From NCBI GenBank assembly GCA_000960865.2, contig JZWU02000004.1:1-64000 (forward strand): a stretch of DNA of 64,000 bases, given 5' to 3'. The translations under genes were made by a program, and so were the position numbers. The notes beneath the pieces were generated by a model. It was not told where the DNA came from. It searched no databases and saw nothing but the letters and a program-made list of their open reading frames with translations. How positions within the stretch are numbered: the first letter of the stretch is position 1; every line of letters begins with the position of its first letter. Shown in pieces: positions 22,500 to 34,644 of this stretch. This DNA comes from Vulcanisaeta sp. AZ3. GTDB taxonomy: Archaea > Thermoproteota > Thermoprotei > Thermoproteales > Thermocladiaceae.

Positions 22500-25400
22500 A
22501 TGGAGAAACAACCGTTAGTGATATATAGAAAGGTCTGTCCAAACTGCGGTGGAGACATAACCTCGGATAGACTTAATTCTGGATTACCATGCCATAAATG
22601 CTTACCTGAGAATTTAAGTAATGTTGCTGGGGTAATTGAAGTTCTTAATCTCCTTGAGAGGTTAGGTACGATTAATAGACTTAGAACATTATCAAATCTC
22701 ATTCATGAGTATGAGGAATTTAGTGATATGTTCAAAAGTGCCATAGGTATGAGCATGTGGGGTGCTCAGAGGCTCTGGGCTAGGAGACTTATTAAGGGTA
22801 AAAGTTTTGCAGTGGTTGCGCCTACGGGTAGTGGGAAGACTACCTTCGGTATAATTGCGTCAATATACATGGTGGTTAGGAGGACGGGTAAGGTATTGAT
22901 AATGGTACCCACATCAACACTGGCTTACGACATCCATAGAAGGCTTGTGAATTATGCAAATAAGCTTGGCGTTAGCGTTAAAGTAGTACATGTATCCTCA
23001 ATATTAAGTAAGCAGGAGCTTTCTGAAGCTATGAAGTCAGTCGAGGATGGTGATTTTGACATATTGATAATAACAAATGCCTTCTTACCGCGTCACATGG
23101 ACCTCCTCAAGAGGTACAGATTCTCATTGATCTTTGTTGACGATGTCGATAGTGTATTGAGAGCCTCTAGTAGGAACATAGATAGATTATTGATACTGCT
23201 CGGTATTAGTGAGGAGACGCTACATAAGGCATTAGAGGTCGTTGAGCTAATAAAGAAGCTTAGGAGAGCAATTAGGTTTAGATTAAGTGAGGAAGAAATC
23301 AATAGTCTTAGGAGGGATATTGAGAAATTAAGTGGTGAATTACGTAATTATATAAACAATAATAAGATAGGTATCTTAATAGCCTCAGGAGCGTTGACAA
23401 AGATAAGAAAGACCACCAGGCTCTTCCTCTTTAGGGAATTCTTGGGCTTTGAGACAGGCGGTAGGGCTGAGGGGCTTAGGAATGTTGTTGATGTTTATGT
23501 TAAACTTGATAAGTCCATAATCGATACTGCAGTTCAAATCGTGAAGAGACTTAGTGGTGGGGGTATAGTGTATGTGCCATCGGACCTTAAGGACTTAATT
23601 AATGAGTTAGATAAGAAACTCAATGAAAGCGGTATAAAGTCAGCACCCTACTTAAGGCCCAGTAAGTCCGTGCTTAATGATTTCATTGATGGAAAAATAG
23701 ACGTATTGATAGGTCTCGCCACCCCTAGGTCATCTCTAGTTAGGGGTATCGATTTACCTCAAAGGATTGCTTATGTTGTTTTCATAGGCGTCCCACGCAT
23801 GAGGTTTAGAGTTAAGCTTGACGAATTCACACCAATTAGATACCTAATGCTTCTATTCAATATCAGGAATGCCGTTCCTCAATACCTAAGGAATGATATC
23901 GATAGAGTTGTTGCTAAACTTAAGAATTTAACAGTACTTAATCAAGAGCAAATAAATAATTTATTAAAAGCCATTAAGGAGAATAAAGAGTTAAGTGGAT
24001 TTGAAAAATATGCCGTTGATGTAATTAAGGAGGCTGTAGATCTCGTAAATAAATTATTAAGTGATAAAAATGTTAGGAAGGCCATTGAACAATCAAGCGA
24101 AGTTGGTCTTGAGTACATTAATAATGAATTATATGTAGTGGTTCCTGATGTAACAACGTATGTGCAAGGTAGTGGTAGAACCTCAAGATTCTACGTTGGC
24201 GGTGTTTCCAAGGGCCTGTCCGTACTTATTATTGATAATGAGAAAATATTCAATGGACTGACTAGAAACCTTAAGTACAGGCTTGAAGATGTGAGATTTC
24301 AAGAAATAAGTGAGGTAAACCTCGATAATTTAATAAAGAATATCAAAGAGGAAAGGGAGTTAATTAGAAATATAATGCTTGGTAAGATACCAAATCAATT
24401 CCTGGGTAAGGATCCGTTAAGAACAGCGTTTGTAATTGTCGAATCGCCAACTAAAGCAAGGACAATAGCAAGCTTCTTCGGCGTACCCACTAGAAGGGAG
24501 GTCGGTCCTCTCATTATTTATGAGGCTGTCCTAGGTAATCTATACTTACTAATAACAGCTACAAAGGGTCATATGTGGGACTTAATGCCCTCAGTTCCAC
24601 TCGACGTAAAAGATTTCGCGCCAATCCTAGGGGCAAGTAAGTTACTTGATTATTACGGTGTTCTAAAGGTTAATGATAACTTCATCCCTATTTATAGCAC
24701 AATAAAAAGATGCCCCGTTGGGGGTGAAACCTACACGGAAGATTCTGATGTATGTAAGATACATGATGTTAAGCTCGTAGATGTCATGGAAGTAGTCAAT
24801 GCAATAAGAGATGTGGCCACAGAGGTTGATCAAGTAATGATCGGCACAGATCCTGACTCAGAGGGAGAAAAGATCGCATGGGATGTTTACATGATTCTCA
24901 GACCTTACGTAAGTAACATATATAGGATTGAGTTCCATGAGGTAACCAAGAAGGCAATAATAGATGCAATAACAAATCCAAGAGGAATAAACACAAATAT
25001 GGTCAATGCCCAATTGATAAGAAGAATTGAGGACAGGTGGATTGGCTTCGGACTAAGCCAGAAGGTCCAAGAAGAGTTTCACAGGAAGAACCTATCGGCC
25101 GGTAGAGTACAGACACCAGTACTTGGCTGGATAATAGATAGGTTTGATGTGAGTAGAAAAGACAAGGTTTACACTGTGACCCTAACTCTCAATAACAACA
25201 TTAAGGTAAGGTTAAGTATACCCCCTGAGAAGGAGGACTTAATAAAGGTCTTGAGAGCACTCCATAGGAATAAGCCCGTTGAACCTACAATAAAGGTCAA
25301 GGTCAACAAGATTAGTGAAGAGAAAGGAATTGAGTTAAATCCACCACCTCCATACACAACAGATGCCTTACTCAGAGATGCCGCAAACATCCTTGGGCTA

Positions 25401-26300
25401 AGCGTTGAGAGAACAATGGCAATAGCCCAGGAACTCTTCGAATCAGGGTTAATAACATACCATAGGACCGATAGTACAAGAGTATCAACCGTCGGCATCG
25501 GTATAGCCAAGGAATATATTAGTGAGAGAATTGGTGGAGATTATTTCGTGGGCAGATCGTGGAGCGGTGAAGAGCTTGGTGCACATGAGTGCATAAGACC
25601 AACAAGACCTATAGACTCTGATGATTTAAGGAACCTATTGAACACAGGGCTTCTCCAATTAGCTATTAGAGTTACTCCAAACCACCTTAGAGTCTACGAC
25701 CTAATCTTCAGGAGGTTCATCGCAAGCCAAATGAAGAGTGCCAAGGTTACAAAAGAGAGATTTAAATTAAGCATTTACTTAAATAATGAAGAGGTTCATT
25801 CTGAGGAGTTTGAAAGAATAAGTAAGATCGATGAGCCTGGATTTACTAGGGTTTGGAGTTACCCTGAGGGTAGGGTGTCTCAAGAGCTTAACCTCGATAG
25901 GGGTGAGTATGAGATAATTAATGTTGATTATATTAAGAAGGTAAGCAGGACACAACCACTTAGGGAGGGTGATATAATAGATTTAATGAGGAACAGGGGA
26001 ATAGGTAGGCCGAGTACTTACGCCAAAATAATTGACGTAATCTTAAAAAGGCACTATGCAATTGTTGTTGGTAAGAGGGCTAGGTTCGTTGTACCAACAA
26101 CCCTCGGCCGTCAAGTCTATGATTATTTAACGAAGAAGAATAGTAAATTCAGTGATTTAGTTAGTGAAGAGAGGACTAGAATGGTTGAGAATTACATGGA
26201 CGACATTGAAAATGGCAAAAGAGAATACGCAGATGTACTTAATGAACTATTTGATGAGGCAGTAAGCAAGGGAGTATTGAGAGGGAATGTTATTGATTGA
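22500..26300 (+). CDS. rgy: Reverse gyrase
   Basis: N-terminal CPNCGG..PCHKC, APTGSGKTT, DDVD, QGSGRTSR, VESPTKA, DPDSEGEKI, ITYHRTDS, GIGRPSTYA. Confidence 0.98.
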   Translation: MEKQPLVIYRKVCPNCGGDITSDRLNSGLPCHKCLPENLSNVAGVIEVLNLLERLGTINRLRTLSNLIHEYEEFSDMFKSAIGMSMWGAQRLWARRLIKGKSFAVVAPTGSGKTTFGIIASIYMVVRRTGKVLIMVPTSTLAYDIHRRLVNYANKLGVSVKVVHVSSILSKQELSEAMKSVEDGDFDILIITNAFLPRHMDLLKRYRFSLIFVDDVDSVLRASSRNIDRLLILLGISEETLHKALEVVELIKKLRRAIRFRLSEEEINSLRRDIEKLSGELRNYINNNKIGILIASGALTKIRKTTRLFLFREFLGFETGGRAEGLRNVVDVYVKLDKSIIDTAVQIVKRLSGGGIVYVPSDLKDLINELDKKLNESGIKSAPYLRPSKSVLNDFIDGKIDVLIGLATPRSSLVRGIDLPQRIAYVVFIGVPRMRFRVKLDEFTPIRYLMLLFNIRNAVPQYLRNDIDRVVAKLKNLTVLNQEQINNLLKAIKENKELSGFEKYAVDVIKEAVDLVNKLLSDKNVRKAIEQSSEVGLEYINNELYVVVPDVTTYVQGSGRTSRFYVGGVSKGLSVLIIDNEKIFNGLTRNLKYRLEDVRFQEISEVNLDNLIKNIKEERELIRNIMLGKIPNQFLGKDPLRTAFVIVESPTKARTIASFFGVPTRREVGPLIIYEAVLGNLYLLITATKGHMWDLMPSVPLDVKDFAPILGASKLLDYYGVLKVNDNFIPIYSTIKRCPVGGETYTEDSDVCKIHDVKLVDVMEVVNAIRDVATEVDQVMIGTDPDSEGEKIAWDVYMILRPYVSNIYRIEFHEVTKKAIIDAITNPRGINTNMVNAQLIRRIEDRWIGFGLSQKVQEEFHRKNLSAGRVQTPVLGWIIDRFDVSRKDKVYTVTLTLNNNIKVRLSIPPEKEDLIKVLRALHRNKPVEPTIKVKVNKISEEKGIELNPPPPYTTDALLRDAANILGLSVERTMAIAQELFESGLITYHRTDSTRVSTVGIGIAKEYISERIGGDYFVGRSWSGEELGAHECIRPTRPIDSDDLRNLLNTGLLQLAIRVTPNHLRVYDLIFRRFIASQMKSAKVTKERFKLSIYLNNEEVHSEEFERISKIDEPGFTRVWSYPEGRVSQELNLDRGEYEIINVDYIKKVSRTQPLREGDIIDLMRNRGIGRPSTYAKIIDVILKRHYAIVVGKRARFVVPTTLGRQVYDYLTKKNSKFSDLVSEERTRMVENYMDDIENGKREYADVLNELFDEAVSKGVLRGNVID

Positions 26301-26317
26301 AAAACCACAGACTAGTT

Positions 26318-28432
26318 TTATCCACAAGAGCCTGTTTTGCAATACGGATCATCTGTCTCTCCAAGCTCCTCTCTCATTTCCTCCTCAATACTACCTGAAC
26401 CATCACCCTTAATCCTGACCAACTTGTCCTTAAGTGATGATAGGGATGTATAGCTGGCCTTCGCCTCAATCTCAATCCTTGGTTTTGTCTCGATCTTGGC
26501 TTTTATTTCAGTCTCAGCGCTCTTAATGCCTGTGTATATTACTTGGGCTGACTTGCTCCTATCTCTATATACAGTAATTCCGAAGGCATTTAGGAGCCAA
26601 GCTAACCTATATGCCTGCTCCACATCCTCTATAGGCGTCTCACTGGGCATGTTTATTGTCTTACTAACACCAGAATCATTCCACCTAGCCCAGGTGACTT
26701 GCATGTAGATGTGCCACTTCCAATGTACCTCATGGGCAGTCCTCAATAGATTATTCAATGGGTGGTCTTTGGGTAATACGCCGTATTCCTCAACGAATTT
26801 CCTGGTCCTCTCATCAAGTGTCTTCGTGCTCATTAGTAGCTTGAGAGCCGTATAGTTATACTCAATGAGTTTGCCAATGCTTAAGTTCCTAATGTAGGCA
26901 ATGGCGAATAGGGGTTCTATGCTTGAGTTCACACCTGCAATGAGGCTTCTCGAACCCTCTGGTGCAATGCTCATTATTGAGCCATTCCTAATGCCAATAG
27001 TGCTCACGTCTATTGATAAATCCTCATCAGTGGCATCATAACCCTTAAGCACTGCTGTGTAGCCCCTCATTATTGACTTAACAGTCTCATCCTCATAACC
27101 AATCCTCAATGTATTTAAGTACTCATTAACTGCCTCCTCATCTATTGAACTCGAGAACCTCTCAAGTCTCTCCCTATGCTTTGTCCAGGGTAGTACACCA
27201 TCAGCCCAATCACCATGCTTATACGCCGGGTAAGCACCCTTCTCCCTAGCCAATTCAATACTTGCCCTAACAGCAAACCTAGCCATAAAACTAGCCAGGG
27301 CATCCGACACAGCCAAGGCCTGGGGTGAATCATACCTAAGACCCAGGGCTATCAAGGCATCAGCCAAGCCATTAGCCCCAAGCCCAATCCTCCTAGTCTC
27401 TAAAACCCTCTTCTTAAGTCTCTCGTGAGGTAACTTATTCACATCAATAACATCATCCAAAAACCTAACCGCCAAACCCACATCCCTAGCTAACCCCTCC
27501 CAATCAATACTGCCACTCACCACGTATTTAGCCAAGTTAATACTGCCTAGGTTACAACTCTCAAAGTCATACAGTGACTCCTCTGAGCATGGGTTTGTGG
27601 CATTAATAACCTCGCCAGGTAACTTCTCATTATTAATGAAGTTAGCTAAATCCCTATTCCAAAGACCTGGATCTCCACTATCCCAAGCGGACTTAACTAT
27701 TTTGTCCCAGAGCTCCCTTGCATTGACTTTCTTCCATATCCTAACCTTCCCAGCCCTTATTGCCTCTACGCATGACTCATAGCACTTAACGAAGTCCTCA
27801 CCCCACGTCTTGTAGAGGCATGGGCACTCCCTTGGGCTAATTAAATAAACATCCTCACTCTTAAGAGCCTTCTGCATGAAGTAGTCGTCGATAGTTACGG
27901 ATATGTTGAAGTTCTGAAGCTGCGTATCCTTTAAACCACCACTCTTTGATGTTATGAACTTCTCAATATCTGGATGCCACCAGAAGAGCATACCCATTTG
28001 GGCACCGCGTCTCTTACCGCCCTGCTTAATAGTGTCGACCAATGTGTCGAAGAGGCGCATGAAGCTTAGAGGACCACTGGCAATGCCAGTGGTTGACCTA
28101 ACAATGTCTCCCTCAGGTCTCAATTTACCAAAGTTATAACCAACACCACCACCAGACTGGAATATCAAGGCGGCAAGTCTCAAGGCATCCATTATGCCGA
28201 AGTTACACTCCGCATCCTCCCTATTTGTATCGCTATCCCTAGATAGACAATCATCAACGGGTATTACGAAGCATGCAGATAACTGGCCAAGCCTAGTAAA
28301 TGCATTATATAACGTTGGCGAATTAGGCATGAACTTAAGCTGACTAATTAGGTCGTAGAATCTCCTTGCCCAAGTTATTGGATCACCACCATACCTAAGC
28401 TCCGCATAAGCAACACCCATTGCAGTCCTCAT
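26318..28432 (-). CDS. nrdJ: Class II (B12-dependent) ribonucleotide reductase, catalytic part (continues from upstream ORF across a frameshift)
   Basis: PNSPTL, LSACFV, KQGGKRRGAQM, TNPCSE, CNLGSINL, SIAPEG, VSKTINM, C-terminal CKTGSC. Confidence 0.92.
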   Translation of the reverse strand: MRTAMGVAYAELRYGGDPITWARRFYDLISQLKFMPNSPTLYNAFTRLGQLSACFVIPVDDCLSRDSDTNREDAECNFGIMDALRLAALIFQSGGGVGYNFGKLRPEGDIVRSTTGIASGPLSFMRLFDTLVDTIKQGGKRRGAQMGMLFWWHPDIEKFITSKSGGLKDTQLQNFNISVTIDDYFMQKALKSEDVYLISPRECPCLYKTWGEDFVKCYESCVEAIRAGKVRIWKKVNARELWDKIVKSAWDSGDPGLWNRDLANFINNEKLPGEVINATNPCSEESLYDFESCNLGSINLAKYVVSGSIDWEGLARDVGLAVRFLDDVIDVNKLPHERLKKRVLETRRIGLGANGLADALIALGLRYDSPQALAVSDALASFMARFAVRASIELAREKGAYPAYKHGDWADGVLPWTKHRERLERFSSSIDEEAVNEYLNTLRIGYEDETVKSIMRGYTAVLKGYDATDEDLSIDVSTIGIRNGSIMSIAPEGSRSLIAGVNSSIEPLFAIAYIRNLSIGKLIEYNYTALKLLMSTKTLDERTRKFVEEYGVLPKDHPLNNLLRTAHEVHWKWHIYMQVTWARWNDSGVSKTINMPSETPIEDVEQAYRLAWLLNAFGITVYRDRSKSAQVIYTGIKSAETEIKAKIETKPRIEIEAKASYTSLSSLKDKLVRIKGDGSGSIEEEMREELGETDDPYCKTGSCG

Positions 28433-29001
28433 CCATAAGTATTGAGGCGCCTCGAAAAAGAACCATCAATCCTTTTCAGGAGGTACCTACTCATTAGCGT
28501 CCTGACACCATTGTACGTTAGAAGCTCATCCCTACTGGGGTCTAGATAGCTAGCCAACTCATCAATGTGATCTCCAAACCAAGCAGCCATCTCAGGATCC
28601 CAAATTCTCAGTTCAAGCCCTGTCCTAAACCAATCCTTGAAACCATCACGGTAGGCACCCTCAAATTTCAACTTACTTTCATCAATAGCCTTAATAATGC
28701 TCTTACCCCAAACCTGCTTATACACGCTCCAAAGTAAGTAATTCCTAGCAGCATAATGCCAACTCAAATCTTCAGTGACCATGTTAAGCATGATCAACTG
28801 AACCCTATCAAACAACTCCACGGACGAAATAACACCACTAATATCTAAGGCATTAAGTACAGCACTTGGGTCAGGAGCCCTAGCAAGCTTCAAAGTAGTG
28901 AGTAGTTTATTTTCGTCGAAACTCTCCACAACACCATTCCTCTTCAACACTTCTGCTTTAACCATTTCTCTAACTCCTTCAGTACTTAATTGCACGCCCA
29001 A
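28429..29001 (-). CDS. nrdJ: N-terminal ATP-cone part of NrdJ, separated by a 1-nt frameshift
   Basis: VLKRNGVVESFDENKL ATP cone; one extra T in the run at 28455-28459 gives RYLLKRIDGSFFEAPQYLWMRTA, joining both ORFs. Confidence 0.85.
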   Translation of the reverse strand: MGVQLSTEGVREMVKAEVLKRNGVVESFDENKLLTTLKLARAPDPSAVLNALDISGVISSVELFDRVQLIMLNMVTEDLSWHYAARNYLLWSVYKQVWGKSIIKAIDESKLKFEGAYRDGFKDWFRTGLELRIWDPEMAAWFGDHIDELASYLDPSRDELLTYNGVRTLMSRYLLKRIDGSFSRRLNTYG

Positions 29002-29391: not shown

Positions 29392-30540
29392 ATGACGATT
29401 GAGATTATAAAGCCTGATTATAATGGTTATAGCATTCAAAATTTAGCTAACACGCTACTTTCGAATTTCGGTATTGCCGTGAGGGGTCCTAGGTTGAGAT
29501 ACGACTTGGATCTAGATAGGCGTGTAGTATTGATATTAATTGATGGCGTTAGTTATCAGGACTTAATCAATGTGTTTGGAGATTCACTTAGGGTTAGTAA
29601 GTTGTATAGGTTGTCTACGGTATTCCCTACAACAACATCAACGGTATTAACGACCTTATTTACGGGATTAAGCCCTGGAACCCATGGAGTCTTGGGACCT
29701 AACCTATACCTTAAGGAGTTAGGTGCTATAATTAATACCCTGAACATGGGGCCTGTAATTGGTGAAAGGGATGGTTTGTATAGGTCAGGTTATGATTTGA
29801 AGGAGTTATTCCCGATAAAATCTACGATATTTGAAGAATTAAGTGCAATGGGTATTAGGGGTAGAGTTTACGTGCCAAGGGGTATATCGGGTGGGTTGTC
29901 TAGGTTGACTTATGCGGGGGCTGAGGTTGTGGAGTACGCTACATATTATGATGCTATTGTGAATGCGGGTAAGTTTCTTAATGACTATAAAGAGGTGTTT
30001 GTGCATATATACATAACTACTGTGGACTCGGCTTCGCATAAGTATGGGCCGAATTCTGAGGAGAGTAGGGTTGTTTTAAGGGAGACTGTAGATTCCGTGA
30101 TTCGTCTTACCAGGAATTACCTTAAGGAATCAAGTGTTATTATAACTGCTGATCATGGTCATGATGAGGTATTGAGGAATGTGAAGGCTAATGATTTATT
30201 AAACCTGCTCGATCTGCTTACTGTACCTCCATATGGTGATGCTAGGGCAATATACTATAGGCTTAATAATGGTGTTGATATTGCTGACTTGAGGTCGTTA
30301 TTGAATAAGAATAATATTAGTGGGGTTATGCTGAGCAAGGGAGAGGCGGTAAGTATGGAGCTGTTTGGTGAGATTGATGGTGGAGTTATTGATAGAGTTG
30401 GAGATGCCGTGTTCATACCAAGTAGTGGTTCGTCCTTAATATATCTCTATAGACCTGATAATGAGGAGGTGTTGATGTTAAAAGGCCAGCATGGTGGGTT
30501 AACAGAGAGGGAGTTATACGTACCATTAATACAGCCTTAA
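29392..30540 (+). CDS. Alkaline phosphatase superfamily / nucleotide pyrophosphatase-phosphodiesterase
   Basis: LIDGV, VFPTTTSTVLTTLFTG, DSASHKYG, TADHG, GQHGG. Confidence 0.88.
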   Translation: MTIEIIKPDYNGYSIQNLANTLLSNFGIAVRGPRLRYDLDLDRRVVLILIDGVSYQDLINVFGDSLRVSKLYRLSTVFPTTTSTVLTTLFTGLSPGTHGVLGPNLYLKELGAIINTLNMGPVIGERDGLYRSGYDLKELFPIKSTIFEELSAMGIRGRVYVPRGISGGLSRLTYAGAEVVEYATYYDAIVNAGKFLNDYKEVFVHIYITTVDSASHKYGPNSEESRVVLRETVDSVIRLTRNYLKESSVIITADHGHDEVLRNVKANDLLNLLDLLTVPPYGDARAIYYRLNNGVDIADLRSLLNKNNISGVMLSKGEAVSMELFGEIDGGVIDRVGDAVFIPSSGSSLIYLYRPDNEEVLMLKGQHGGLTERELYVPLIQP

Positions 30541-31871
30541 CCACCAACAAGTCTATCTAATCTTCTCCTAGACTTCTTTATTTGATTGACCATTCTCTTC
30601 ATTAGTTGATAATAATTCAGTAGCTCCTTAACGTCTTTAGGCGATACACCGGCACCCTTAGCTATTCTCCTAATCCTCGATGCATTTATCGTCTCAGGGT
30701 TAAGCAGTTCCTCTTTCGTCATTGAGTTAAGTATGTTTCTCCATCTCCTAAGCATCTCCTGGGCGTTACTCATTCTCTCATCATCAAGCATTAATGCCCT
30801 ATACTGGGTTGGTAGTAGGCTTGTTGGTAGTAGTTCCATGATTTTGCTCAGTGGTCCAAGTTTTAGCATGGAATCTAATTGTTTCTTTAGGGTTAATAGG
30901 TTCATTTTACCTTCCTCAATTTCCTCCATAACCTTATTCTCCTCCTCAATGGCCTTGATTCTTTCAATGAGCGTTTCAAGGTCGCCCATACCAAGCATCC
31001 TAGATACGAATTTATCGGCATTGAAGACCTCAACCTCATCAATGCCCTCACCAACACCAATGAACTTAATCTTAGCACCACTCTTAATGACTGAGGTCAA
31101 TGCACCACCAGCCTTAGCAGTACTATCCATCTTCGTCAAAAATACACTATTTATGGGTACGTACTTCATGAAGGCTTCAGTCTGGGCGGCTGCTTGCCTA
31201 CCTATGGTTGCATCAATGACTAACATAACCTCATCAGGCTTGGACTCCTCATAAATTGCCCTGGCCTCTCTCAATAACTCTTCCTCATTCCTATGCCTAC
31301 CTGCCGTATCAATTATTATCAAGTCAACCTTATTTCTCTGCATGTATTCAAGCCCGTGTCTCAATATTGTAAGTGAGTCCTTAGAATTCTCCTCACCATA
31401 GAACATAGCATTAACTTTCTCAGCTAACTGTTTAAGCTGGTAGTAGGCACCTGGCCTGTATGTGTCAGTCTCAATGAGCCCAACCTTTAGGTTTCTTCTC
31501 ATGTAGAACCAAGCCAATTTAGCAGCTGTCGTTGTCTTTCCACTACCCTCAACGCCAATTAACATTAGTCTATACGGCTTCTTAGTAATATTAACATCAA
31601 GTCCTCCCTCACCGCCCAAGGCTTTAATCAATTCTTGATAGAGTAGGTATATGAGGAATTCCTTCGAGGTTATTCCCTCTGGGGGTTTCTCCTGCCTAAA
31701 TCTTTCTTCAATTGACTTAGTTATTGATGAAACAGCATCAGCACTTACATCAGCCCTTAATAATACTCTTTGAACTTCCCTTAAAATCTCCCTTAGCGTT
31801 GTCTCATCTATGTAATTAATTCCCCTAATCCTAGCAACTAAGTTGGTGAATGCCTCAATTAACGGTTTCAC
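30537..31871 (-). CDS. srp54: Signal recognition particle protein SRP54
   Basis: GSGKTTTAAKLA, DTAGRH, TKMDSTAKAGG, LGMGDL, SRIRRIAKGAG. Confidence 0.96.
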   Translation of the reverse strand: MKPLIEAFTNLVARIRGINYIDETTLREILREVQRVLLRADVSADAVSSITKSIEERFRQEKPPEGITSKEFLIYLLYQELIKALGGEGGLDVNITKKPYRLMLIGVEGSGKTTTAAKLAWFYMRRNLKVGLIETDTYRPGAYYQLKQLAEKVNAMFYGEENSKDSLTILRHGLEYMQRNKVDLIIIDTAGRHRNEEELLREARAIYEESKPDEVMLVIDATIGRQAAAQTEAFMKYVPINSVFLTKMDSTAKAGGALTSVIKSGAKIKFIGVGEGIDEVEVFNADKFVSRMLGMGDLETLIERIKAIEEENKVMEEIEEGKMNLLTLKKQLDSMLKLGPLSKIMELLPTSLLPTQYRALMLDDERMSNAQEMLRRWRNILNSMTKEELLNPETINASRIRRIAKGAGVSPKDVKELLNYYQLMKRMVNQIKKSRRRLDRLVGG

Positions 31872-31914
31872 GGTAACCTAATTTTTCCTTCGGCTTAGCC
31901 TTAAATAGTTATTG

Positions 31915-32988
31915 TTATTGCGGGTATTGCTGTGTCCCGTAGTATTGTGATGTGTAGTATTGTTGTGGATAATAATAGTTTTGCGTTGTTTGTTTACCGC
32001 AATAATAACTTCTGTAATAATTAAGTGTTGTTTCATCGTTCAAGGGCCCTATTATGTATATGCCGCTGGGTCCAATTTCGTAGATCAATTTTATAGGCCT
32101 AATTGGCATCCACCTCATTTTTCTAATGAACATAACTCTCATTAGGCATCCAATGTCATTGTTGGCCAGGCTTAACTCCTTGAGAGAGAGCATAATGACT
32201 CCACTGGCTAGGTACTCCTCAACACCAAATCTGCTTAATTTATTCTCCTCGCCTGTAGGTATTTCTGACGTCATTATTGTCGTGACATCCTTAAGCTTCT
32301 TAAGCTGAAACACAAGCTCCCTGAGATATTCCCTTATCCAAATTACGTCTTGATGGCTCATTATTATTAATGGTGCTATCGGGTCTATGACCAGTCTCTT
32401 TACATTGTACTTTTTCACTTGCTCAATAATCATCTTAGCTAGATCTCTCGGGTTAAGGGTTATCTTCTCGTCACGGGCATAGACACTGAAGTACGTTCTG
32501 AAGTCAGCCAGAACTAACTTACTGCTTCTCTCATAGGTATCTAGGTCCCAGCCAAGTGCGTCACGGACACCGTTCTTAACATCCTCAGAGGGTTCATCAA
32601 CAGTTACGTACATGCCAACTTCATCTGAATCCGCTCCGGTTCTTAGGAAGGTTAGGCTGAATATTGTCTTTCCAGTACCGGCCTCGCCAGCTATCAAGTA
32701 AACCTCTCCCTTCTTAAATCCACCACCGAGCACGTACGTATCTAAATAATTAATGCCAGTTAATGCCTTATCCTCATAGTAATAGTAATAATATGGGTAT
32801 TGGCCCTGGGGATACTGCATTGTTTGAGTAGGGCTTTGAGTATCATATTGGTATTGATAGTATGCCGTTGTATCATAATTATAATAATTATTCGATGCAT
32901 AATTAGTATAATTGGTGTAGGAATCCTGGTTAGTCTCATAATCTCTCCTTATTGGTTTCATATTACTCGTCAATAGTAATAAAGGCAC
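31915..32988 (-). CDS. KaiC/RAD55-like RecA-superfamily ATPase with Y/Q/N-rich termini (start possibly 32961)
   Basis: TGINYLD..LGGG, GEAGTGKT, RLVIDPI, GVEEYLASGVI, IRKMR. Confidence 0.88.
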   Translation of the reverse strand: MPLLLLTSNMKPIRRDYETNQDSYTNYTNYASNNYYNYDTTAYYQYQYDTQSPTQTMQYPQGQYPYYYYYYEDKALTGINYLDTYVLGGGFKKGEVYLIAGEAGTGKTIFSLTFLRTGADSDEVGMYVTVDEPSEDVKNGVRDALGWDLDTYERSSKLVLADFRTYFSVYARDEKITLNPRDLAKMIIEQVKKYNVKRLVIDPIAPLIIMSHQDVIWIREYLRELVFQLKKLKDVTTIMTSEIPTGEENKLSRFGVEEYLASGVIMLSLKELSLANNDIGCLMRVMFIRKMRWMPIRPIKLIYEIGPSGIYIIGPLNDETTLNYYRSYYCGKQTTQNYYYPQQYYTSQYYGTQQYPQ

Positions 32989-33012
32989 TATATATATGTT
33001 GCGTTCCCTTAA

Positions 33013-34644
33013 TCATTCTCTGGGCTTAACCTTAAGTTGAACATTGAACTTCCTACCAATGCTCTCGAGCTTAGGTAAACCCTTAGATATGACCACACCA
33101 ATATAAGCATTAGGCACTTGAATTACTATTGAGCCGTCCTCGCCTCTAACAATTGTGACTTCCTCAGGAGGTACATACTTCCTCAAAATCCTAATAATCC
33201 TACTCAACAACCTCTTATCACTCACTGCGCGTTCAACTCTACGGGCCTTACCAATGGGTGTTACGAAAATCTCCTCACCGAACACGTAAATTTCGTACTC
33301 AACAGTATTACTTATGAAATCCTTAACAATAACAACAGGCCTTGCAAGATCCTCCTCGCTCATACCCTCAGGAACCTTCACCGTAAGTTCTAAACTATAT
33401 ACCTTCTGAACCTCGCCATCTCTCATGAAGAGTACTGTGTCTATTATTGAGGGGAGCATGCCAAGTTCGGTCCTACCTATGAATCTCTGGATTGCGTCTA
33501 TTGGGTTTGTTGCATGTACAACACCAACCATACCAACGCCAGCGAGCCTAAGGTCTATGTACAACTGAAAGTCAGCCGTATCTCTCATTTCATCAAATAT
33601 TGTGAAGTCTGGTCTAGATAGTAATAGGAGATCGTGAATCTCCTCGGAGGATGCGTAAGTCTTTGAGATTTGCGTGACCTCATTGGGCAGTATCATATCT
33701 CTAGGAGACTCCACGGTCTTAACTATTCTACCAAGGTTCATGTAATACTCAGCTAATGCCTGCGCAAATGTTGTCTTACCAGCACCAGGTGGCCCCGCTA
33801 TAAGTATTCCCTCAGCCTGCTTACTAAGCCTCTCAAGAACCCCAGGATGTAGCGAATATTCCTCCAACCTTCTCTTAATCAGTGGCCTAACGGCAGTTAT
33901 CTCAATTCCATCAGAAACGGGAGGTAATGCAATGACTATTCTGTACTCACCGTGCTGAATTATTAACGAATTCTCTCTCTTAATCTCAACCCTAGTATTA
34001 CTATCTGCCTTCAATGATGCAGATATTAATTCCCTAACCATCCTTTCCAAATACTCTCTACTCAATGGTTTAGTACCAAGAGGCACTAACTGCCAATTAC
34101 CTGGCCTCCCTTTCTTGGCGTAGGGTATTGATCCCTCCTTAAGGTGAATTGACATAGTGTCTTGGTCAAAAAATCTCTCGATCTCTAGTGCTTCCTTGTG
34201 CTGGCCTATGAAAAGTGTCTCTACACCCATTGCCTTAGCTATTTCTAGGTTCATCTCATCGCTAGTAATTAGGGTAGCCCCTAATTCCCTAGCCATTTCT
34301 CTAACCACTTCATCGACAGTATGTTGATCGAGTCTCATTATTGATTTAGGAATTATTGATACGTATTCTATGGTCGTACCCTCAGAATTAAACCTACTAA
34401 TGGGTTCCGTGATATTATTTAATTCTCTAATACCTAACCAACCCAGAGCACCACCAGCCCTAGCCTCACTTTCAAATCTCCTAATAATCTCTGTATGAAC
34501 AAGAATTCTACCCCTAATGCTACCCTTCAATATGGCCTCTTTCAAACTACCATCCAAGAAAACCGAGGTATCAGGCACGTACACATTACTTACCTGCATT
34601 CCTCCAATCGCTAATTGGATCGAAGCTAACACCTTAATAAACAC
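33013..34644 (-). CDS. PINA-type ATPase (PIN + PilT/VirB11-like ATPase + KH domain)
   Basis: VPDTSV PIN start, TMSIHLKEG, GPPGAGKTTFAQAL, KTVESPRD, FDEMR, C-terminal IGVVISKG KH-like. Confidence 0.9.
   Translation of the reverse strand: MFIKVLASIQLAIGGMQVSNVYVPDTSVFLDGSLKEAILKGSIRGRILVHTEIIRRFESEARAGGALGWLGIRELNNITEPISRFNSEGTTIEYVSIIPKSIMRLDQHTVDEVVREMARELGATLITSDEMNLEIAKAMGVETLFIGQHKEALEIERFFDQDTMSIHLKEGSIPYAKKGRPGNWQLVPLGTKPLSREYLERMVRELISASLKADSNTRVEIKRENSLIIQHGEYRIVIALPPVSDGIEITAVRPLIKRRLEEYSLHPGVLERLSKQAEGILIAGPPGAGKTTFAQALAEYYMNLGRIVKTVESPRDMILPNEVTQISKTYASSEEIHDLLLLSRPDFTIFDEMRDTADFQLYIDLRLAGVGMVGVVHATNPIDAIQRFIGRTELGMLPSIIDTVLFMRDGEVQKVYSLELTVKVPEGMSEEDLARPVVIVKDFISNTVEYEIYVFGEEIFVTPIGKARRVERAVSDKRLLSRIIRILRKYVPPEEVTIVRGEDGSIVIQVPNAYIGVVISKGLPKLESIGRKFNVQLKVKPRE

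Follow-up and report, generated by a model that had tools for sequence, protein, structure and literature searches.

Tyrosine-rich, predicted disordered tails on a conserved KaiC-like ATPase of Vulcanisaeta sp. AZ3

Several described proteins resemble the one studied here. Bacterial RadA/Sms proteins combine an N-terminal C4 zinc finger with a RecA-like ATPase carrying a KNRFG motif, and tyrosine (Tyr) reaches a density of roughly 12–13% in the low-complexity domain of FUS. Among the KaiC-like proteins, the CI half of KaiC and the proteins PH0186 (2zts) and PH0284 (2dr3) of Pyrococcus horikoshii share both fold and ATPase motifs with the protein under study. The aRadC proteins of Sulfolobales (RadC1/RadC2, SSO2452; 2w0m) are also single-domain, KaiC-like ATPases of the RecA superfamily from Thermoproteota; the Sulfolobus proteins are reported to interact with RadA, which they modulate, and to bind Hjc (PMC4080772). 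The subject of this study is a gene for a KaiC-like ATPase on the minus strand of a 64,000-nucleotide stretch of DNA from Vulcanisaeta sp. AZ3 (contig JZWU02000004.1, positions 1 to 64,000), referred to in the following as the window. Its product carries Tyr-rich tails at both ends of the ATPase core. The gene and its parts are as follows (AF2, AlphaFold2; aa, amino acids; nt, nucleotides).

31915..32961, minus strand: coding sequence of the KaiC-like ATPase (348 aa and the stop codon) from the likely start ATG 32961, assigned from the list of open reading frames (ORFs), the translation, the Pfam KaiC match and the start analysis
32773..32961, minus strand: N-terminal tail, residues 1–63, in which the basic head MKPIRR leads into low-complexity sequence rich in Tyr (19 residues), Gln, Asn and Thr
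32044..32772, minus strand: ATPase core, residues 64–306, with the Walker A, DEP, VIDPIAPL and SRFGVEEYLASG motifs
32665-32688, minus strand: Walker A motif GEAGTGKT of the KaiC-like core, residues 92–99
31984..32043, minus strand: C-terminal helix region, residues 307–326 (PLNDETTLNYYRSYYCGKQT), AF2 helix at 310–326, conserved among Vulcanisaeta
31918..31983, minus strand: C-terminal Tyr/Gln-rich tail, residues 327–348, containing the 21-aa NYYYPQQYYTSQYYGTQQYPQ with 8/21 Tyr
32989..32997, minus strand: TATA-like promoter element ATATATATA, 28–36 nt 5' of ATG 32961 and abutting GTG 32988

An earlier, sequence-only reading of the window had described Tyr-rich tails at both ends of this protein, and the counts bear this out. 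Tyr accounts for 19 of 56 residues (34%) in the N-terminal segment YETNQ...YYYYYYE and for 8 of 21 residues (38%) in the C-terminal NYYYPQQYYTSQYYGTQQYPQ. The binomial probability of at least 19 Tyr in 56 residues is 1.4e-13 at the window mean of 3.84% and 1.1e-11 at the frequency of the core (12/243), while the corresponding values for at least 8 Tyr in the 21 C-terminal residues are 6e-07 and 4e-06. The 63-aa N-terminal tail is composed of 30% Tyr, 13% Gln, 10% Asn and 13% Thr and is free of cysteines; its residues 8–63 contain neither Lys/Arg nor Ile/Leu/Val/Phe/Trp. The last 21 residues consist of 38% Tyr and 29% Gln. Both tails together hold 31 tyrosines per protomer, which corresponds to 186 if the protein is a hexamer. 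When the 77 window ORFs of at least 100 aa were compared by their most Tyr-rich stretch of 40 aa, the KaiC-like ORF reached 37.5%, followed by a membrane protein with 17.5%.

The Tyr codons are mixed, with 23 TAT and 20 TAC in the whole gene, 13 and 6 in the N-terminal tail and 6 and 6 in the C-terminal tail. Run with the lowest threshold, Tandem Repeats Finder detected just one 15-nt and one 21-nt mini-repeat. A DNA microsatellite as the source of the Tyr runs, which the sequence-only reading had also discounted, is ruled out by both results. Sequence entropy is 2.37 and 2.32 bits in the two tails compared to a mean of 3.51 in the core. AlphaFold2 modelling gave predicted local distance difference test (pLDDT) values below 50 at residues 9–59 and 327–338, with averages of 34–41 per 10-residue block over residues 11–60. 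Low entropy combined with the lack of confident structure characterises the tails as predicted intrinsically disordered low-complexity regions, as had been anticipated. A search of the ESM Atlas for look-alikes of tail residues 1–64 returned no usable match, and a word-based homologue search with residues 1–63 alone (E-values up to 10, proteins of 191–609 aa) yielded a single candidate, which is an orthologue.

The ORF 31915..32988, from which the earlier reading started, is present in the window and lies on the minus strand according to the ORF list. It contains five in-frame start codons, namely GTG 32988, TTG 32973, ATG 32961, ATG 32820 and GTG 32733. Crenarchaeal transcripts start about 26 nt downstream of the TATA box, and many of them are leaderless. 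Because the TATA-like box at 32989–32997 directly abuts GTG 32988, translation from ATG 32961 (348 aa) is likelier than from GTG 32988 (357 aa), and the spacing together with the crenarchaeal promoter layout therefore points to the 348-aa protein. The ORF was confirmed, with its strand specified as minus and its likelier start moved to 32961. The surrounding motif AAC(G/A)CAAC(A/T)TATATA (window 32989–33010, with equivalents in L001–L004) is kept in 5/5 Vulcanisaeta sequences, and an A/T-rich, TATA-like element at a similar distance from the proposed ATG was recognised by eye in 16 of 17 inspected sequences. Since this conserved TATA-like motif is located directly upstream, the KaiC-like gene is predicted to have its own promoter, though it begins only 51 nt after the preceding gene. 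A true start downstream of the Tyr-rich segment, which would have removed the N-terminal tail, is rejected: ATG 32820 would still retain MQYPQGQYPYYYYYYE, and GTG 32733 lies within the ATPase core, with no start codon between codon 57 and the core. Two other frames are open across the Tyr-rich DNA (32760-32939, minus strand, 59 aa; 32800-32976, plus strand, 58 aa); they are probably a by-product of TAT/TAC-rich DNA and not additional genes.

Selection on the tails was analysed for the window gene and three other full-length Vulcanisaeta genes, which gives six pairs. Synonymous sites are saturated among the four genes, with synonymous divergence (dS) of 0.9 to more than 2 or not computable. For the N-terminal tail, non-synonymous divergence (dN) was 0.24–0.26 in the pairs of the window gene and 0.11–0.38 over all six pairs, and the ratio dN/dS (omega) was 0.12–0.21 where computable (dS 1.1–2.2). 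The C-terminal 42 residues (307–348) showed a dN of 0.03–0.15 at saturated dS and an amino acid identity of 80–95% among the four sequences. The dN/dS of the ATPase core is about 0.03, and all indels preserve the reading frame. On sequence evidence, the tails are coding, translated and under purifying selection that is less tight than in the core; translation is indicated by the conserved TATA box upstream, the absence of a usable downstream start and the conservation of the amino acid sequence despite saturated dS.

The KaiC-like identity of the core, likewise recognised in the sequence-only reading, was confirmed by several methods. A single Pfam KaiC domain (PF06745) was detected with an E-value of 8.2e-61 and 205.7 bits (cutoff 26.6), covering profile positions 3–228 of 231 and residues 77–314 of the 357-aa form. 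Profile matches to structures in the PDB were obtained for KaiC (1.6e-61), PH0186 (4.6e-49), PH0284 (2dr3, 3.3e-37) and SSO2452 (2w0m, 3.2e-31). The top Foldseek match was 2zts_A (PH0186) with an E-value of 4e-20, 34% identity and a template modelling (TM) score of 0.87 normalised by target; CI domains of KaiC also ranked among the nearest solved structures. In the AF2 model, based on an alignment of 30 sequences, 10-residue blocks of the core mostly reached values of 85–97, with three blocks at 50–63. The alignment contains 73 invariant columns, and three elements are invariant in the 30 orthologues, namely Walker A, DEP (D122-E123-P124) and the RLVIDP/VIDPIAPL region of Walker B. In the profile alignment, DE of DEP aligns with EE of KaiC CI, so that Walker A, Walker B and the acidic pair are all present. 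The junction YY-x-[DE]-[DN]-[KR]-A beside the core is conserved as well. The protein is a single-domain P-loop ATPase of the KaiC/RecA superfamily and of KaiC-CI type. By homology to KaiC CI, PH0186 and PH0284, it probably forms a hexameric ring.

A clock KaiC was rejected as an assignment. In contrast to KaiC, the window protein has one domain, in 348 aa, instead of two, and its scores were 74.6 bits for circ_KaiC (cutoff 546) and 114.6 bits for PRK09302 (cutoff 408). KaiA or KaiB families were not found among the 61 window ORFs scanned (5 neighbours and 56 more). The autophosphorylation pair of KaiC CII is S431/T432. The VEE motif of the family aligns with the H-I-S-T site of the CII half of 8zn5 and is CI-like, with Glu as in the non-phosphorylated CI half. 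The NCBIfam archaeal KaiC subfamilies all remained below their cutoffs (KaiC_arch_3, 94.9 bits against 249; thermo_KaiC_1, 83.6 against 307; KaiC_arch_4, 74.0 against 248; thermo_KaiC_2, 41.2 against 232). ArlH/FlaH was rejected at 25–25.6 bits (cutoff 215), and the annotated window ORFs included no recognisable archaellum genes. Bacterial RadA/Sms was rejected at 27.2 bits for TIGR00416 (cutoff 403), with an N-terminal tail devoid of Cys and no C-terminal domain. Compared by E-value only, the similarity to aRadC (3.2e-31) is weaker than that to KaiC or PH0186, and no Sulfolobales sequence occurs among the 79 best genomic loci.

A word-indexed search yielded 411 homologues, the best of which are Vulcanisaeta proteins with 77–89% identity. 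In an exhaustive profile search, four representatives at the 50% identity level scored 393–488 bits, followed by values of 308 and 271 (13,807 superfamily matches). Judged from these searches, the orthologues form a tight, previously unnamed KaiC-like group with conserved gene order. A scan of species-representative genomes gave 79 loci, from which full frames were extracted. They were grouped by core identity into group A (at least 60%, n = 34), group B (48–60%, n = 33) and group C (below 48%, n = 9); L031 (frameshifted, draft assembly) as well as L037 and L010 (cut by a contig end) had been left out before the grouping. N-terminal tails with at least 15% Tyr were regarded as Tyr-rich.

Group A comprises Vulcanisaeta, Caldivirga, Thermocladium, Thermoproteus, Pyrobaculum and other Thermoproteaceae. 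Its N-terminal tails are Tyr-rich in 34 of 34 members, with a median of 29% Tyr (range 16–44%) at lengths of 10–100 aa, which makes composition the conserved trait; none of the 34 is a four-cysteine tail. In Pyrobaculum only a Tyr-rich head of 16–19 aa is kept, with the compact acidic-aromatic motif MSYQEQYSYDYQDYYQ. Tyr-rich C-terminal tails were found in 9 of 31 group A members (Vulcanisaeta, Caldivirga, Thermocladium and one further lineage). In group B, consisting of Thermofilaceae and related lineages, Tyr-rich N-terminal tails are absent (0/32), and 26 of 33 members have at least four Cys, in the layout CxxC...C...PPC followed by a Pro/Ser/Thr/Gln-rich stretch. A short basic head precedes both kinds of tail (MSIFDKLRRKRKE and MGIFRRRKK, compared to MKPIRR in the window protein), and the C-terminal tails of Thermofilaceae are basic (KRISRGTK, RRIRARR). 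No member of group C is Tyr-rich (0/9), and in five of nine the core is immediately preceded by a classical zinc ribbon; a Pfam zinc ribbon was detected at the same place in more distant relatives. The conservation of tails in orthologues, for which a comparison had been suggested, therefore applies to the N-terminal tail in the close relatives, not in the distant ones, and to the C-terminal tail in fewer than a third of the close relatives.

Tails of this kind (63 aa at the N-terminus, approximately 22–42 aa at the C-terminus, 30–38% Tyr) set the window protein apart from the KaiC superfamily, as 0 of 146 further representatives have at least 20% Tyr over 30 aa. Among 1324 ORFs in the 79 loci, 22 contain at least 25% Tyr over 40 aa, and all of them are the KaiC-like gene.

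L038–L068 (e.g. L045:5632-5740) and the proteins P0072, P0096 and P0063: Thermofilaceae-type Cys4 module CxxC-x9-YCLKL-x10-PPC

The Cys4 module matched no family in a Pfam scan at E-values up to 1; to judge from its modelled structure, it may represent a small, hitherto undescribed zinc-binding domain. AF2 modelling of a Thermofilum-type orthologue yielded a Cys4 domain at residues 1–37 (pLDDT 73–90), a disordered linker of about 60 aa (residues 38–98) and the core. Because this fold combines Cys4 domain, disordered linker and core, the ancestral plan as deduced from the sequences places an anchor module and a disordered linker in front of the ATPase, and the Tyr-rich N-terminal tail is the Thermoproteaceae-specific replacement of module and linker. 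The Thermofilaceae-type orthologues, in which the ATPase bears an SRFG motif, represent an archaeal counterpart of the zinc-module architectures, and zinc ribbons and acidic linkers occur in other KaiC-like representatives; the window protein differs from all of these in having Tyr-rich sequence in place of the Cys4 module. With FUS, hnRNPA1 and the N domain of Sup35 its tails share disordered polar sequence, regularly spaced Tyr and a near absence of charged or aliphatic residues, but they are far richer in Tyr (30–38%), contain little Gly/Ser, are much shorter and belong to a hyperthermophile.

Two further observations were made in the orthologue set. Within a few kb of the orthologue, some Thermofilaceae-type genomes contain a second, more distant KaiC-like copy with 42–45% identity (L043:789-1547 and L043:3540-4373; L067 and L077, located on the same contig). 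In draft Vulcanisaeta assemblies from culture collections (L004, L005, L031, L002), the matches to the KaiC-like gene, PINA, mevalonate kinase and SRP54 are split across frames. As several neighbouring genes are affected together, these splits look like sequencing indels and not true pseudogenes.

The direct neighbours of the KaiC-like gene in the window are the following.

33013..34599, minus strand: upstream neighbour, PINA-type ATPase with PIN-like, PilT-like ATPase and KH parts, likely start ATG 34599
30537..31871, minus strand: downstream neighbour, SRP54 (Pfam SRP54, SRP_SPB and SRP54_N), beginning 43 nt after the stop of the KaiC-like gene

Although the longest ORF of the PINA gene opens with GTG 34644, its orthologues start at the position corresponding to ATG 34599 (MQV.NVY.PDTS), so that the PINA protein of the window probably comprises 528 aa. 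It scored 671 bits for NCBIfam PRK13764 (cutoff 340) and 562 bits for the equivalog HJMigATPsPINA, which is below the cutoff of 800. Among the orthologue loci with enough flank, 38 of 60 have PINA as the next gene upstream, in the same orientation, and 52 of 68 have SRP54 as the next gene downstream, frequently at a distance of −3 to 50 nt. In the nine distant loci, neither gene adjoins the KaiC-like gene (0/9 each), and the Pyrobaculum loci retain SRP54 without PINA upstream. The stop and start codons of the KaiC-like gene and SRP54 overlap (−3) in L010, L012, L035 and L036 and are separated by a gap of 0 in L019 and L026; the spacer in the window is 31872-31914. The three genes form a conserved PINA-KaiC-SRP54 array, in which the KaiC-like gene is linked more tightly to SRP54 than to PINA. 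The association with PINA that had been suspected earlier is thus supported by gene order, but a simple operon is weakened as an explanation by the predicted promoter of the KaiC-like gene and by the more frequent SRP54 neighbour.

According to one report, PINA binds Hjc and Hjm and acts as an ATPase in the branch migration of Holliday junctions (PMC6061704); in another, its deletion is reported to lead to cold sensitivity in Sulfolobus acidocaldarius (PMC8775617). No KaiC neighbour or operon is mentioned in the PINA papers searched. Complex prediction for PINA and the KaiC-like protein gave a score of 0.26 (mark 0.32), which counts neither for nor against binding.

Taken together, we propose a ring ATPase whose disordered tails serve as aromatic 'sticker' arms for weak, multivalent binding, a model to which we assign a probability of about 45%. 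Avidity would result from the sum of numerous weak contacts that the tail tyrosines make with each other, with Gln and with partners, and it would cluster rings with each other and/or keep a client near the motor, for example DNA or PINA, the product of the neighbouring gene. Assembly of this type would be reversible and multivalent, not a templated amyloid. Stickiness and a role in DNA repair are both inferred, the latter from PINA upstream in 38/60 loci and from the reports on aRadC with RadA and Hjc and on PINA with Hjc and Hjm (PMC4080772, PMC6061704).

Several observations weigh against this proposal. The whole Thermofilaceae-type branch is without Tyr-rich tails and only 9/31 close orthologues have a Tyr-rich C-terminal tail; therefore, the core function of the family does not require them. 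Pyrobaculum manages with a Tyr-rich head of 16–19 aa and with no PINA upstream. The KaiC-like gene has its own predicted promoter, and its most constant neighbour is SRP54, the relation of which to DNA repair is not obvious. Aromatic low-complexity contacts of the FUS type weaken on heating, so that stickiness at about 85–90 °C is not a given. The tail-only searches yielded no look-alikes and hence no sign of a 'tail code' common to other proteins. A bolder version of the proposal, which we regard as unlikely, is that of a heat-adapted 'sticker-and-spacer' domain of eukaryotic type. In this version, a Tyr density two to three times that of FUS-type domains would keep condensation reversible at about 85–90 °C, and the ATP-driven ring would scaffold a membrane-less body for DNA repair, in which PINA and its Holliday-junction partners would be concentrated and which would replace recruitment by the zinc module in Thermoproteaceae.

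The main alternative, possible though rather doubtful, is specific recruitment or nucleic acid binding. The Tyr-rich tails would have taken over the task of the Cys4 module and would bind one target, either single-stranded DNA through stacking of Tyr on bases or a partner through a short linear motif, with the remainder serving as a flexible tether. The mutual exclusion of Tyr-rich tails (34/34 against 0/32) and Cys4 modules (0/34 against 26/33) is in line with such a takeover, and so are the basic heads in front of both kinds of tail, the basic C-terminal tails of Thermofilaceae, the retention of just the compact motif MSYQEQYSYDYQDYYQ in Pyrobaculum, the conserved junction at the core and PINA as the neighbouring gene. 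Beyond the junction, however, the genera have no fixed motif in common, and composition is kept while length (10–100 aa) and sequence vary, which fits a composition-driven better than a motif-driven function.

The variable length would also be expected if the tails were tolerated filler, i.e. a spacer that drifted to Tyr and Gln in one lineage without any specific function. Tail length varies tenfold, the tails are dispensable in Thermofilaceae-type orthologues, Tyr-rich C-terminal tails are patchy, and the omega of the N-terminal tail is several-fold above the core value. Nevertheless, we consider this explanation quite improbable. Tyr is costly and sticky, which makes it an improbable neutral end-point, and Tyr-richness is found in all close orthologues over at least five genera. 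The amino acid sequence is conserved despite saturated dS, there are no DNA repeats to drive slippage, and no other ORF in the 79 loci drifts likewise.

Still less probable in our view is a platform for Tyr modification, likewise suggested in the sequence-only reading, in which phosphorylation or oxidative cross-linking of the tail tyrosines would switch the ATPase. The 31 tyrosines are exposed in predicted disordered tails, and ArlH is a KaiC relative that is reported to be regulated by phosphorylation (bioRxiv 10.1101/2021.03.19.436134). Against this stands the lack of a kinase, phosphatase or oxidase gene beside the KaiC-like gene in the window, and the conserved PINA-KaiC-SRP54 array suggests none either. 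In addition, Glu occupies the positions equivalent to the KaiC phosphosites, which is also the case in the CI half.

We give very little credence to a prion-like or amyloid switch, in which self-templating tails would change the activity heritably; the sequence-only reading had raised it together with ATP-regulated condensation. The polar, aromatic, Q/N-containing low-complexity composition is suggestive of it, but Tyr and Thr dominate, and Gln and Asn together account for only about 22% of the N-terminal tail. With 21–42 aa for the C-terminal tails and 16–19 aa for the N-terminal tails of Pyrobaculum, the sequences are short compared with known prion domains. In one archaeal prion-domain study, the Tyr/Phe content was higher in the candidates that tested positive (bioRxiv 10.1101/2020.07.20.212902), but the main texts of the archaeal prion-domain studies, supplementary candidate lists aside, name neither KaiC nor Vulcanisaeta.

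An annotation artefact, i.e. an untranslated leader or a chance open frame, could be suspected from the two other open frames across the tail DNA but is already contradicted by the sequence data: no start between codon 57 and the core save the GTG inside the core, the TATA box upstream of ATG 32961, frame-preserving indels with an omega below 0.25, a C-terminal tail contiguous with the domain up to the first stop, and the same architecture in 34/34 close orthologues.

The fold and the plan of module, linker and KaiC domain are already known. In the literature, paper supplements and a 2017 survey of archaeal KaiC-like ATPases aside, no description was found of a conserved hyperthermophile ATPase with selected tails of such extreme Tyr density at both ends, and a search for literature on Tyr-rich low-complexity sequence or phase separation in hyperthermophilic archaea retrieved nothing relevant. 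Aromatic low-complexity domains have been studied mostly in eukaryotes at moderate temperatures, and the present case is natural, under selection, extremely Tyr-dense and located on a conserved ATPase. The sister lineages, in which the same ATPase carries a Cys4 module and a Pro/Ser/Thr linker, provide a built-in evolutionary control. This makes the family a simple system for testing if and by what means sticker-type interactions function near 90 °C, and flags a strongly conserved, uncharacterised partner candidate of the recombination ATPase PINA. Even if the tails are inert, the analysis defines a tight KaiC-like orthologue group with conserved gene order.

Elsewhere in the window, a reverse gyrase gene with zinc finger, helicase, Toprim and topoisomerase domains was observed at 22500-26297 on the plus strand. 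As the usual marker of hyperthermophiles, it supports a heat-loving host. An ORF for the large subunit of ribonucleotide reductase (704 aa) at 26318-28432 on the minus strand opens with a truncated match to an N-terminal domain. It is preceded, with a 4-nt overlap, by an ORF of 190 aa (28429-29001, minus strand) without a Pfam match at 1e-5, and the two could be a split gene, the result of a frameshift or, in the case of the shorter ORF, a separate ATP-cone-like piece.

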